A stretch of DNA of 64,000 nt from Fibrobacteria bacterium (GCA_043745805.1 JAYTSD010000014.1:61364-125363); one strand, 5' to 3'. Positions 3,464 through 10,762 are shown, counted from the stretch's first letter. Notes: generated by a model from the sequence alone, not told the origin. A program made the numbers and translations.

Positions 3464-4006
3464 ATGATCAATATTATGTTTAAAATGAGTCCTAAATTAA
3501 AACGCTCACAAGGGTTCACCTTAAAAGAAATCATGGTGGTTGTAGCTATCATTGGCATATTAACGGCTGCAGCAAAGCCGTCCGTAAAAAATTTATATCT
3601 CTCGTATAAATATCAAAATGCAGAGAATGCTGTAAAACATTTAGTGCAAACCGCTCGCAGCAGAGCCATTGCAAATCCTAGCGTGCATTATGGCGTGCAT
3701 TTAGATCTAAACTCCGTCCCACAAAAAGTGTTTCTTTTTGCCGATACCGATTCGCCTTCTTCGAATCAGTGGAGCGCCAATGACAAGGCCTATTTACAAC
3801 CTTATTCATTACCAATAAATATTTCCATATCCATCCCTACAAATAAAGGAAGCCTTTCCAGTGACCTTATTTTCAGAGGCGATGGCTCGGCATTTTTGCC
3901 CTTTGAGGTAGTGATTGTTGCCAGTTTAAGTTCTACAAAATCTTTAGAAGATACTTTGGATGTTTTACCCAGCACGGGAAGGATTAAGGTTATCAAATGC
4001 AAATAA
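3464..4006 (+). CDS. FimT/GspH-like minor pilin, cassette 1
   Basis: Prepilin motif SQG|FTLKEIMVVVAIIGIL; AR-SRA helix; IFRGDG; C-terminal TGRIK. Start may be 3476 or 3485. Confidence 0.85.
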   Translation: MINIMFKMSPKLKRSQGFTLKEIMVVVAIIGILTAAAKPSVKNLYLSYKYQNAENAVKHLVQTARSRAIANPSVHYGVHLDLNSVPQKVFLFADTDSPSSNQWSANDKAYLQPYSLPINISISIPTNKGSLSSDLIFRGDGSAFLPFEVVIVASLSSTKSLEDTLDVLPSTGRIKVIKCK

Positions 4007-4443
4007 TTTGCAAGCCCATGAAAGTAAACTCCAAAGGGTTAACGCTGTTAGAAATACTTATAGCAATTATAGTAGTGGGTATAGGTAGCACTGTTTATCT
4101 ACGCGTGCAGCATATGTCGGGAGGTGTTAACAGAACCAATTCTGCTTTATTCCGTGCTGGCCAAATGGTAGAAAAACACATTGAGGCCATTCGCGTACAA
4201 ATTGCCAAAGATACCAATGGCTTAAGATGGGTACCTCAAAATAATTTTATTGAAAGTGATTCTTCGGGTAGTCCCAAACTAAATTTAACGCGCAAGGTAA
4301 GTACCGTAACTGCTCCCAAACCCGATGCAGGAGGAACTTATGCCAATATCCCTTCGGTGCGCAAAATTGATATCGTGGTCAAATGGGGTACTGGGGCAAT
4401 GGATTCCTTGAATGTGACAACTTATGTTTCCAAAAAATTTTAA
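3997..4443 (+). CDS. PilV/GspI-like minor pilin, cassette 1
   Basis: SKG|LTLLEILIAIIVVGIG; C-terminal VRKIDIVVKW...VTTYVSKKF. Confidence 0.82.
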   Translation: MQIICKPMKVNSKGLTLLEILIAIIVVGIGSTVYLRVQHMSGGVNRTNSALFRAGQMVEKHIEAIRVQIAKDTNGLRWVPQNNFIESDSSGSPKLNLTRKVSTVTAPKPDAGGTYANIPSVRKIDIVVKWGTGAMDSLNVTTYVSKKF

Positions 4444-5191
4444 TTGTAAAAAAGGATTTTCCTTAATTGAGATTTTAATTGTAATCGCTGTGGCCGGAAT
4501 TTTACTTGTCATTATTACTCGCTTTTTAAAAGATTCGAAACGTATTTATAATCTGCAAGAAGAATTAACTGAGCGTGATCAAAATGCGCAGTATGCTCTA
4601 AAGCGCTTAGCCGAAAGATTAATGGAAGCGGGAGCAGGGTTACCCACAACCGGCTACGCCATAATTAATACTAGTGGAAATCCAGTTAATTCTTTCACCG
4701 TAGCCACCAATCCAAGGGGTGGGCAACAAATTATTACTAATACTATAGTTGCCGATTCGGTTATTCCTGCGGATGACACTTTAAGCTTTGAAAAAACAGA
4801 CAGTGTGTTAATAGTTCCTAAAAACCCAATTACGCCATTAACAACTTGCCCGTTCAAGCGCGCCGGATTAAAATCGGGAAACTTCGTTATCGTGACTACG
4901 ATTATAAACACTTTGCAAATCGGTGATATGGTATATGGTTTAAAAAAGGAAAACTATAACCTAACTGCAAATAATTTATGCTTAGAGAATTCGGTTTTAG
5001 CAGAAAACATTGATTCGCTTGCTATTCTCTTTAATGATATTGCCGGAAATCCCACTAGCACGTGGACGAATATGCGGTCTGCAAAAATTACCGTGCGGGC
5101 ACGCACACAACATTCTTTTCCAAATATGCCAGGTGATGGATATCTGCGTAGACAGTTATCTATAGAAGTTGGTTTTAGAAATAAAAACTAA
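4424..5191 (+). CDS. PilW/GspJ-like minor pilin, cassette 1
   Basis: KKG|FSLIEILIVIAVAGILL; QNAQYAL...LMEAG; LAENIDSL; C-terminal GFRN. Confidence 0.85.
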   Translation: MFPKNFNCKKGFSLIEILIVIAVAGILLVIITRFLKDSKRIYNLQEELTERDQNAQYALKRLAERLMEAGAGLPTTGYAIINTSGNPVNSFTVATNPRGGQQIITNTIVADSVIPADDTLSFEKTDSVLIVPKNPITPLTTCPFKRAGLKSGNFVIVTTIINTLQIGDMVYGLKKENYNLTANNLCLENSVLAENIDSLAILFNDIAGNPTSTWTNMRSAKITVRARTQHSFPNMPGDGYLRRQLSIEVGFRNKN

Positions 5192-5201
5192 AGGAGGCAT
5201 T

Positions 5202-8852: not shown

Positions 8853-8861
8853 GGAGGAAAT

Positions 8862-10712
8862 ATGTCCAATTTAAAACATTCTCAAAAAAAAGGTTTTATC
8901 CTTATTTTTGCCATTTTGATGATATTAGGGATATCTGCCATGGCGGTTGGCATGGTTTACAATTCCAGAATGACTAATATCACAGCTGCAAATTACAAAA
9001 ACAAAATTCAATCCTTTTATGCCTCTGATGGCCTCATGACCTTACTTGCACAAGAGCTATTAAATGGAAATGATAATATTTATACCAACAGTGGCAAAAA
9101 AGATTCGATTGCTGGAAAACTATGGAAACAAGATTTTGATCATATCAGTGACCTAATGACTAAAGGTAACATAGGTTATACCCCCATAACATCCTATTCC
9201 CTTGGGTCGTATTGGCTAAATCAGGGTCCAGATGGAACATGGCCCATTACGCAAAAGTATGGAGTACTTTGGGAGGGATATTTATATCCTCCGGTTACGG
9301 GTTCCTATATTTTTTATGAACGCTCCAATGCCGAAGGTAAGTTTTTTCTGAGCACGGATGATGATCCTGTTAACCTTTCGCCAAATGCCTTGGTGTTTAA
9401 TACAAATTGGATGGATGAAAAAGATCCATGGCCAACACCTGCTAATTCAATTAAACCTATTACTATATATGATAAAACGGTTTCCAGTGCTCAAAACTTA
9501 ATAGCAGGGAAACGTTATTACTTCAAATATTATCACATAAAAGGTGGTGATGATGATTTTGGTCAAGTAGGCTGGTCAGGACCGAATCAATTAGTAGAAA
9601 AACCCATTCCAGGTAACCGTATGTCTCCCTATGATGGGACAATCCTAACCAATGGAGCTTTTGATTCCACAACTGTTGGATCAATTAAAGTGCGCTACAG
9701 TGTCACACAAATTAACAACTCACAATACTCCCTTTTTACGGAAGGATTCAAACGCAAAAGTGGCAGTGATTCAACTTATAGAGTACCTCTTAACCAAATG
9801 CTTTCGCTTAGTGGAGATGCCGGCATTCCTTCCGATCAAATAAAAGTACCGGTTATTTATTATGATTTTAGTAGTGGCTGGATGACTACTACGGGAAATG
9901 GAGAATTTGAAAACCAGGAAAATGGTGGTGCTAGCGCTCATAAAGGTATGGTACGAAACAATCAAATGATTTATGATTTCAATAATGCAAACTACTTTGG
10001 ACTAGATACCCTTTGGAAACCAATGTTAACTACCGATGCAACCAAAATTTGGCATAGTTGTAATGTGGAAAAGTGGTTTGTGCCTTGGTCGAATGCAGAC
10101 CCTAAAAATCTATATCCTCCAAAAACTGTCACTAGCAATGCCGATGGAGATTATAATAACTGTACGAAACCAAATTGGCCGGGACTGCAAAATAATAAAG
10201 CAAACAGAGAGCGATTCAAAAATTATGCTATACGAGATTCATTAACTTTTGATAGACAACCTGAAATTGGTACTTCCACTTATATGTTTTCCAAAACTGG
10301 AGGTGCAAATACAGATTCTTCTTTTTTTCCGCTTGATAAATTTACTGGCACGGCAGATAGTGGATGGGGGAAAGAAGGTAAATCGCATAATTATTCTTTT
10401 TGTATGGAAATGCATATAAAATTTGAGTTTACCCCAGGACTAGTTTTTGAGTTCGAAGGTGATGATGATGTCTGGGCATTCATTAATCACAAACTTGCTA
10501 TGGATTTAGGAGGAAATCACGTATCCGTTACAGGTACAGCAAATTTTGACATGCTAGGATTGAAAATTGGGACGACTTATCCCTTTGATTTTTTCTTTTG
10601 CGAAAGGCATACCACAGAGTCGCATATGAAAGTGGTGTCCAATTTGCCTCTTGGCAAAGGCGATGGAATCCCACATAGGAACTGGAAACGCGACTACGGC
10701 TCTATGGACTAA
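8862..10712 (+). CDS. PilX-like pilin fused to PA14 and fibro-slime domains, cassette 2
   Basis: AAGGAGG RBS; KKG|FILIFAIL; QSFYASDG; PA14 WEGYLYPPVTGSYIF; fibro-slime FFPLD..GWGKEGKSHNYSFCME..EGDDDVWAFIN..DLGGNH..CERHTTES. Confidence 0.85.
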   Translation: MSNLKHSQKKGFILIFAILMILGISAMAVGMVYNSRMTNITAANYKNKIQSFYASDGLMTLLAQELLNGNDNIYTNSGKKDSIAGKLWKQDFDHISDLMTKGNIGYTPITSYSLGSYWLNQGPDGTWPITQKYGVLWEGYLYPPVTGSYIFYERSNAEGKFFLSTDDDPVNLSPNALVFNTNWMDEKDPWPTPANSIKPITIYDKTVSSAQNLIAGKRYYFKYYHIKGGDDDFGQVGWSGPNQLVEKPIPGNRMSPYDGTILTNGAFDSTTVGSIKVRYSVTQINNSQYSLFTEGFKRKSGSDSTYRVPLNQMLSLSGDAGIPSDQIKVPVIYYDFSSGWMTTTGNGEFENQENGGASAHKGMVRNNQMIYDFNNANYFGLDTLWKPMLTTDATKIWHSCNVEKWFVPWSNADPKNLYPPKTVTSNADGDYNNCTKPNWPGLQNNKANRERFKNYAIRDSLTFDRQPEIGTSTYMFSKTGGANTDSSFFPLDKFTGTADSGWGKEGKSHNYSFCMEMHIKFEFTPGLVFEFEGDDDVWAFINHKLAMDLGGNHVSVTGTANFDMLGLKIGTTYPFDFFFCERHTTESHMKVVSNLPLGKGDGIPHRNWKRDYGSMD

Positions 10713-10730
10713 ACTCCATTTTACCCTCTA

Positions 10731-10762
10731 AAAAAAAGCCCGCTAATAAGCGGGCTTTTTTT
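10731..10762. terminator. Bidirectional rho-independent terminator between pilin cassette 2 and the YceI gene
   Basis: AAAAAAAGCCCGCT-AATA-AGCGGGCTTTTTTT. Confidence 0.9.

Follow-up and report, generated by a model that had tools for sequence, protein, structure and literature searches.

Within a 64,000-nt stretch (contig C14, 61364-125363; hereafter the window, with positions counted from its first letter) of the 3.95-Mb, 99.19%-complete genome of a Fibrobacterota sediment bacterium, eight tightly packed genes on the + strand form two syntenic four-gene sets, A-B-C-D, that together with their terminators occupy 3464-10762. In each set three small minor pilins are followed by a much larger protein, D, that joins a pilin-like N-terminal helix to a PA14 lectin module and a C-terminal fibro-slime head. 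We consider it fairly likely that these cassettes encode the priming/tip complex of a filament in which the subunit at the PilX/GspK position is itself the adhesin, and in which the heads are exchangeable.

We propose that each cassette would supply the four subunits of one priming/tip complex in a type IV filament, with A, B and C as the small minor pilins of its base and D at the very tip, in the PilX/GspK position. D lacks the glutamate at position 5 (Glu5) and could therefore be only the first subunit. The adhesive part would be D itself, by way of a PA14 lectin placed after the pilin helix alpha-1 and a fibro-slime head at the C-terminus, so that D would do the job of the separate PilY1 protein of Pseudomonas, Neisseria and Myxococcus. 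The ligand of the heads is probably polysaccharide, and its binding would go through Ca2+ held at conserved Asp-Asp sites. Three D variants (D1 and D2 in the cassettes, and an orphan, D3) and two A-B-C bases would allow pili to be primed with different heads, possibly under differential expression and with different specificities.

Two paralogous pilin cassettes in tandem

The open reading frame listing bears out an earlier note on this DNA, made from the sequence alone, which had described two complete syntenic four-gene cassettes with large PilX-like genes of about 620 codons. Cassette 1 occupies 3464-7079 and cassette 2 occupies 7182-10712 (Table 1), and in pairwise BLASTP the two copies are 49% identical for A, 51% for B, 45% for C and 43% for D. 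Identity of 43-51%, gene for gene, marks the cassettes as true paralogs and not a chance likeness. D1 is numbered here from the public gene call, which begins at 5202; its reading frame is open from a TTG at 5169, giving 636 residues. The same note had assigned each cassette a terminator of its own, and both hairpins are strong, with none of 200 shuffles as strongly folded in either case. A scan for sigma-70-type promoters returned 26 sites against a shuffle mean of 30.9, so no promoter could be assigned from it.

Contigs from four DNA runs, all sediment metagenomes of one study, cover the locus without joints, and a single contig, from what is probably not the source run, spans the end of D1, A2 and B2 and continues into C2. 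An assembly artefact as the origin of the tandem was rejected on these grounds, since contigs bridge the junction and the copies are merely 43-51% identical as proteins. Two other samples of the same study carry a strain variant of C2, with a dense cluster of substitutions at about 8290-8410; one 1.6-kb contig holds some 60 differences, as against 0-7 letters in the adjoining contigs, those of cassette 1 and D2.

Most of the small subunits are recognizable as prepilin-type proteins. The Pfam N_methyl model (PF07963, cut-off 21.2 bits) is passed by A1, B1, C1, A2 and C2 at 24.0-29.8 bits (27.2 for A1, 24.3 for B1 and 29.8 for C1), and B2, just under that cut-off at 19.3 bits, passes TIGR02532 (cut-off 16.3 bits) at 18.1. 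The A2 family alignment shows a conserved start, G followed by F-T-x-x-E, and a C-terminus reading LxSTGR. More specific models remain below their cut-offs. The best specific NCBIfam match of both A1 and A2 is GspH (TIGR01708; 2.3e-07 for A1, far under its cut-off), and PilV (TIGR02523) gives 1.3e-04 for B1 and 6.3e-06 for B2. In A the GspH and GspG models reach no further than the N-terminal helix and score 26-34 bits, where their cut-offs stand at 80-89, and the Verru_Chthon cassette models TIGR02596 and TIGR02599 (cut-offs 70 and 256 bits) are confined to the helix as well (A2 25.4 bits, C1 20.5 bits); no model of that cassette matches D. Profiles of A, B and C searched against PDB sequences find the N-terminal helix of major pilins and nothing beyond it. 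Because the specific models and the PDB profiles alike hit only the helix, the positions given to A, B and C follow from gene order, size and motif, not from family membership. By order and size the set fits FimU/GspH, PilV/GspI, PilW/GspJ and PilX/GspK, in agreement with the FimT-PilV-PilW-PilX-like reading first given to it.

Architecture of the large subunit

D1 opens with a class-III-like leader, MPKSIEKLKSQKG, followed by FILIF, that is, basic residues and a Gly, then Phe and a hydrophobic stretch, without Glu5. The +5 residue is Phe in D1, D2 and D3, and the pattern of a basic leader with Gly before Phe is common to 35 close relatives. In the AlphaFold2 model of D1 (mean predicted local distance difference test score, pLDDT, 77) the long N-terminal helix is followed by a PA14 module, by a small sheet with strands at 270-274, 277-287, 290-300 and 307-317, and by a large C-terminal beta-domain at 328-620.

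The first module is a PA14 domain by sequence and by predicted fold. Pfam PA14 (PF07691, cut-off 24 bits) matches D1 at 61 bits (1.5e-16) and D2 at 52 bits (6.5e-14), and matches 35/35 family members. The top fold matches reach Z 13-14 with a root-mean-square deviation of 3.0-3.4 Å over 150-163 residues; in VIA-align these include the PA14 domain of an RTX adhesin (6m8m; Z 14.1, 3.1 Å over 150 residues) and Flo5 (2xjr; Z 13.5, 3.3 Å over 163), with MpPA14 and the Epa adhesins at Z 12-13. An R-x-D-D motif is nearly invariant in the 35-member family (R155, D157 and D158 at least 90% conserved). In weak HMMER alignments (E 0.02-0.04) the D157-D158 pair falls on the ADD of Epa9 and is shifted by one residue from the VDD of Flo5. 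Lectins of the Flo/Epa/MpPA14 type carry a Ca2+-binding Asp-cis-Asp pair in the sugar site, and the Asp-Asp positions of D may form the corresponding Ca2+/sugar site.

The second module is a fibro-slime head. TIGR02148 (Fibro_Slime, cut-off 45 bits) matches D1 at 112.1 bits, D2 at 117.0 and, in the genome search, D3 at 118; the core of the match in D1 is residues 518-604 (529-615 in the 636-residue numbering), and Pfam PA14 also matches the core of this module. Modelled alone (pLDDT 80.6; predicted template-modelling score 0.85), the module aligns over its whole span with PA14 structures (6m8m, Z 8.7, 3.6 Å over 149 residues; 6qe7, Z 8.6), and as modelled it is a PA14 fold enlarged by long loop insertions. 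The 35-member family keeps GDDDVW and four Cys without exception, as it does the whole of G542-D545, including D543-D545. Both domain models thus pass their cut-offs, as the earlier description of PA14 plus fibro-slime domains would have it, but the architecture is better put as two PA14-fold modules, the second of them expanded. Behind the head lies a short tail in which R619 and G622 are invariant and W617, K618, D620 and Y621 are at least 90% conserved in the same family; in D1 it reads WQRDYGSMD.

Ten loci of other Fibrobacterota that match the C-terminal half of D only were checked, and in eight of them the equivalent of D1 327-615 forms the very N-terminus (within the first ~75 residues) of proteins of 634-2215 residues, directly behind a Sec-type signal peptide. 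Since the same head opens these Sec-type proteins, D can be described as a minor pilin to which a complete classical fibro-slime adhesin head has been fused. The conserved tail, WKRDYGxxD, is a feature of the D proteins and does not occur in the Sec-type fibro-slime proteins, which run on past the head. Fibro-slime proteins have been tied to cellulose adhesion in Fibrobacter succinogenes by antibody blocking, proteomics, localisation and expression (PMC4668043, PMC3079729), and these papers regard pilins as one factor and fibro-slime proteins as another.

D has the traits of the PilX/GspK functional class, in that it lacks Glu5, is the largest subunit and the product of the last gene, and stands in a kept A-B-C-D order; the absence of Glu5 from both PilX and GspK is described by Treuner-Lange et al. 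(2020, PMC7541494). Membership in the PilX_N family (PF14341, cut-off 25.5 bits) is reached by a homolog: the corresponding cassette protein of locus L127, from another family, passes at 29.9 bits, and D1 aligns with it over its full length (E 1.5e-51). Its counterpart at locus L128 scores 25.3 bits, and five of 11 D-like proteins from other families reach E<=0.001. At E<=0.1 PilX_N matches nothing else in their own genome but D1, D2 and D3. A predicted complex of mature A1, B1 and C1 with D1 residues 14-325 scored 0.66, against 0.54 for a control in which C was replaced, a margin that speaks neither for nor against binding. The type II secretion system (T2SS) model T2SSK (PF03934) finds nothing in D at E<=0.01, and the GspK, GspG and GspH models are all below cut-off. 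PF03934 has two matches in this genome, on contigs C49 and C44 and away from pilin genes, but as it also matches most control genomes these two say little.

Table 1. Genes, terminators and D1 segments of the two cassettes, in window coordinates
Feature	Coordinates	Strand	Description
A1	3464-4006	+	180 residues; prepilin-type minor pilin, FimU/FimT/GspH position
B1	3997-4443	+	148 residues; prepilin-type minor pilin, PilV/GspI position
C1	4424-5191	+	255 residues; prepilin-type minor pilin, PilW/GspJ position
D1	5202-7079	+	625 residues (public gene call); putative modular minor pilin, PilX/GspK position
D1 residues 1-69	5202-5408	+	Leader and long N-terminal helix (pilin alpha-1); modelled helix 6-69
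D1 residues 80-263	5439-5990	+	Canonical PA14 lectin module, between alpha-1 and sheet
D1 residues 268-318	6003-6155	+	Modelled four-stranded antiparallel sheet, presumed to be that of the pilin module
D1 residues 327-609	6180-7028	+	Fibro-slime head, predicted expanded PA14 fold
D1 C-terminal tail	7029-7076	+	Ends W-x-R-D-Y-G-x-x-D; low model confidence
Terminator 1, intrinsic	7102-7128	+	11-bp stem, then U-run; -16.1 kcal/mol, z -6.4
A2	7182-7688	+	168 residues; paralog of A1
B2	7685-8086	+	133 residues; paralog of B1
C2	8067-8852	+	261 residues; paralog of C1
D2	8862-10712	+	616 residues; paralog of D1, same architecture
Terminator 2, intrinsic	10731-10762	+	14-bp stem, then U-run; -20.9 kcal/mol, z -5.95

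Conservation of the cassette and exchange of the insert

The close family of D comprises 36 full-length members at 37-50% identity. Those that are named all come from Fibrobacterota/Fibrobacteres metagenome bins, and their annotations go no further than 'fibro-slime domain-containing protein', 'hypothetical' or 'psiC'. We surveyed 296 genomes of the phylum for full-length matches of two queries, the N-terminal half of D1, which comprises helix, PA14 and sheet, and the C subunit. The former has a full match in 19 of 31 other genomes of its own family (18 of 30 without the unpublished genome G254), and elsewhere in one sister-family genome only. C is present at full length in at least seven families (f1, f2, f3, f12, f13, f15 and f17), and some 50 genomes bear the cassette. 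Both queries drew a blank in all 151 genomes of the largest family, f6, and genomes of the cultured Fibrobacter type match the fibro-slime core only.

Gene order is preserved over this range. C stands directly upstream of D in 16 of the 20 loci from its own and the sister family (of the remaining four, one is ambiguous, one is an orphan D, L103, and two are unreadable by simple picking of open reading frames), and it does so in 9/10 loci from other families, the tenth being ambiguous. A neighbourhood survey across Fibrobacterota had been proposed at the outset as a check on the cassettes, and it finds their order kept in 25 of 30 loci, distant families included. The idea of alternative tips gains from the same comparison, as tandem D-D pairs and orphan D genes are common in relatives: a D-D pair lies behind a single A-B-C in 5/20 loci of the own and sister families and in one of the 10 from other families. 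The orphan of the present genome, D3, is a 627-residue paralog, 48-50% identical to D1 and D2 and of the same architecture, on the minus strand of contig C1 (219638-221518), near the contig end and with no pilin genes adjacent. A locus of another genus (L113; G263:C93:31500-40181) reads D, then A-(B)-C without D, then A-B-C-D, and this array implies that whole-cassette duplication and loss of D both occur.

Across families the head is constant and the insert is not. All 11 D-like proteins from other families (10 loci) carry the fibro-slime head above cut-off (90-126 bits), and in place of PA14 they have one or two F5/8 type C domains (3/11), GH115_C (1/11), a DUF1349 match that stays under the Pfam cut-off (3/11), or nothing recognised (4/11). 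Within the genome, D1, D2 and D3 are 73-79% identical over the helix region, their most conserved part, falling to 36-47% over the first PA14 module and 38-45% over the N-terminal part of module 2, where there are 15-45 gapped columns and many loop insertions and deletions. A quick IQ-TREE tree places D1 and D2 on long terminal branches and joins D1-D3 in one fork that gives no order of duplications.

Such divergence could also arise among tip complexes that are merely redundant, the copies serving as duplicates for dosage or condition with the same ligand, and their heads changing by drift or to escape phages or grazers. This would fit the shared architecture and the conserved Asp-Asp and Cys positions of all D copies, the generally faster evolution of exposed domains, and the finding, reported in PMC7541494, that Myxococcus can form pili with either one of two clusters. 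We nevertheless think redundancy rather unlikely, for the insert has been exchanged between families for unrelated carbohydrate-binding folds, which points to selection on the ligand, and the differences among D1-D3 include the many insertions and deletions in module 2 loops, not only substitutions.

Filament machinery and relation to known tip complexes

The earlier note held that its proposal would fall if the genome lacked type IV pilus machinery, and that machinery is present, prepilin peptidase included. The genome has five ATPases of the PilB/GspE type and further ones resembling PilT, a pilB-pilT-pilC-histidine-kinase cluster, a PilM/N/O and secretin (pilMNOPQ) cluster, two further ATPase-secretin clusters, a PilA-like pilin of 163 residues, and two platform proteins, the second adjoining five small pilins, among them a small one without Glu5. 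The single prepilin peptidase, encoded on contig C4, would process the leaders of both cassettes. As to the supposed absence of a separate PilY1 adhesin, PF05567 found none in the window and none at E<=0.1 in the genome, a negative from one Pfam model that no control genome brought over its cut-off and whose sensitivity is therefore unverified. The machine served by the cassettes is most likely a retractile type IVa pilus, to judge by elimination, by the nature of the head, and by the pilB-pilT-pilC, pilMNOPQ and PilA-like genes elsewhere in the genome.

Other loci in the genome recall parts of this arrangement. A third, distant minor-pilin cassette lies on the minus strand of contig C32 (59840-66590) and encodes a 581-residue protein with a weak HpsA match, then prepilins of 172, 153 and 293 residues, a 420-residue right-handed beta-helix protein with a choice-of-anchor Q match and, last, a 601-residue protein with a leader, no Glu5 and no recognised domain. 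On contig C31 (about 132.6-135.1 kb; L014:13589-16057) an 822-residue protein of lectin type, with Laminin_G_3 and PA14 domains, is divergently oriented from an ATPase-secretin-PilN/O-pilin cluster.

A different machine is conceivable. The cassettes might serve a non-retractile, secretion-type filament, such as a T2SS-like pseudopilus or a polysaccharide-secreting apparatus like the cyanobacterial Hps system, whose tip lectins would hold cargo (a glycoprotein or the cell's own exopolysaccharide) and not an external substrate. The gene order fits GspH-I-J-K equally, GspH is the best specific match of A1 and A2 (albeit below cut-off), ATPase-secretin clusters exist beyond pilB-pilT-pilC, a second platform protein stands beside five small pilins, and the C32 cassette is preceded by the weak-HpsA gene. 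However, GspG stays below its cut-off throughout the genome (best 38.8 bits against 88.85, at the N-terminus only), the second platform protein already has its five pilins, including the one without Glu5, and the head of D is that of surface or extracellular fibro-slime adhesins and would be better placed on an extended fibre than on a periplasmic piston. On balance we regard a secretion filament as unlikely.

Several observations weigh against an adhesive tip pilin on a retractile machine. Housekeeping genes lie on both sides of the cassettes (upstream, two that are glucose/sorbosone-dehydrogenase-like; downstream, YceI and a phosphoribosyltransferase), and no machinery gene is linked to them; the genome has other ATPase-secretin systems, without a platform protein, and other pilin clusters; and the runs listed as holding the locus are DNA only (the four of one study), with none on record as RNA. 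D1 and D2 are matched by neither N_methyl nor TIGR02532. PilX_N gives D1 17.8 bits and leaves all of D1-D3 under its cut-off, and in the close family it reaches E<=0.01 in 4/35 (best 0.0016) and passes its cut-off in 0/35. The sheet at D1 268-318 is presumed to be the pilin sheet from its position in the model, no fold match having been obtained, and searches with whole D1 were filled by PA14 matches. Similarly, the D profile finds only PA14 among PDB sequences, the helix is all that such searches recover for A, B and C, and the fold score of the C-terminal module (Z ~8) falls in a range that the tool calls common. To these may be added the single model behind the PilY1 negative, the sub-cut-off scores of the DUF1349 inserts, and the faster divergence of the heads, which relaxed constraint on exposed domains would also produce.

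Another reading is that D is no pilin at all, its N-terminus being an uncleaved signal anchor and D a fibro-slime protein tethered to the inner membrane or otherwise exported that happens to be encoded beside pilin genes. The failed prepilin and PilX_N models and the sheet without a supporting fold match are what such a protein would give. We find this improbable in view of the place of D behind A-B-C in 25 of 30 loci, distant families included, the G-F-I-L directly behind the basic leader, the L127 ortholog that passes PilX_N, and the same N-terminus in the orphan D3; ordinary fibro-slime proteins of the phylum, moreover, use Sec signal peptides. The label PilX suits D by its class traits and through its L127 homolog, but D1-D3 themselves miss the family cut-off. 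An adhesin built into the tip pilin, as the earlier note had it, is supported in part, being favored by the leader and loss of Glu5, by the PilX_N homology of L127, by gene order and by the PilY1 search, and disfavored by the lack of linkage between cassettes and machinery.

The architecture had been thought undescribed, but the principle behind it is already in the literature. Pilins that bear grafted lectin modules form a widespread modular class, PA14 (IPR011658) being among the commonest modules in the survey of Raynaud et al. (2021, PMC8179133), and the vWA-bearing PilB and lectin-bearing PilC of Streptococcus sanguinis resemble D in that a functional module is grafted on a pilin for display. 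Those modular pilins are defined by the N-terminal motif IPR012902, whose equivalents PF07963 and TIGR02532 do not match D, so that by the definition given in its text D would fall outside that survey. In the present cassettes the protein so equipped is the subunit at the PilX/GspK position of a core set; it lacks Glu5 and bears two modules, one inserted and one, the fibro-slime head, C-terminal. The Thermus minor pilin ComZ is a similar case. It receives a mention in PMC8179133.

Alternative tip sets are established in Myxococcus xanthus, where three FimU-PilV-PilW-PilX-PilY1 clusters share a single major pilin and a single machine (Treuner-Lange et al. 2020, PMC7541494). The likeness extends to several paralogous sets as alternative tips and to a PilX without Glu5 on top; the adhesin there, however, is a separate PilY1 in each cluster, whereas here the lectin modules lie within the PilX-position protein, no PilY1 was found by PF05567, and extra heads come as D-D tandems and orphan genes. 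Cyanobacteria have two core sets, each priming a different filament on a machine common to both, and a beta-solenoid of PilX has been proposed to take the capping role of PilY1 (Schuergers et al. 2026, PMC13759059). That protein, like D, is a large PilX-type minor pilin with an extra domain, but the domain is a beta-solenoid and not a lectin, and the roles described are competence and motility, not polysaccharide binding. The T2SS set GspH-I-J-K has the same order and a large K without Glu5 that carries a domain inserted in the pilin fold (PMC8179133, PMC7541494); its insert is an alpha-domain, and the Gsp models fall short of their cut-offs here. With the fibro-slime proteins of F. succinogenes D shares the head and its GDDDVW core, and pili are invoked alongside these proteins in adhesion models (PMC3079729, PMC4668043, PMC4704652); they differ in being Sec-secreted, 600 to more than 2000 residues long and N-terminally headed, and the pilin-fused form was found in 0/151 genomes of the largest family. 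We found no published pilin-fibro-slime fusion, nor a PA14 domain in a core-set minor pilin, although Dataset S1 of PMC8179133 may list relatives. Modular pilins (PA14 included), multiple tip sets and a PilX that replaces PilY1 are thus already in print, and what appears new is the particular fusion of a pilin with the fibro-slime head.

Some further features of the genome were noted in passing. A flagellin gene in the window (62636-63496) and an FlgM gene (L013:14988-15296) indicate a flagellated organism, unlike Fibrobacter; flagella have been inferred to be ancestral in the phylum in the analysis of PMC4704652, with which these genes are consistent. Contig C17 (54328-70806) contains a single open frame of 5492 codons that has the look of a giant surface protein, its prepilin-motif match being probably due to chance. 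On the minus strand of the window, at 37827-41462, three genes for proteins of 307, 344 and 548 residues have no Pfam match at E<=1e-5 and lie beside a Fic/DOC gene.

It is tempting to speculate further, though we put this forward as a tentative and less probable extension, that in Fibrobacterota outside the largest family PilY1 has been replaced by a plug-and-play tip pilin. A constant fibro-slime head would be combined with a swappable lectin insert (PA14, the discoidin-like F5/8-C, GH115_C and possibly the ConA-like DUF1349), alternative D proteins (from D-D tandems, orphan genes and duplicated cassettes) would compete for a common A-B-C base, and one retractile machine could thereby be directed to different polysaccharides, a substrate-specific grappling hook with which to forage on insoluble glycans. 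The Sec-type fibro-slime adhesins might then represent a derived or parallel use of the head, independent of pili.

Pili and fibro-slime proteins have long been discussed as separate adhesion factors of cellulolytic Fibrobacterota, and here they meet in one polypeptide of a conserved operon, a fusion that offers a concrete route by which a pilus may recognize polysaccharide. It adds a case to the view that the tip and not the shaft sets the function of a filament, and that domains built into PilX can stand in for PilY1. The isolated heads appear small, disulfide-bonded and soluble, and may lend themselves to expression and to screening for polysaccharide specificity. The exchange of inserts between families would amount to a natural experiment in the retargeting of pilus tips, with modules exchanged at the tip across a phylum.

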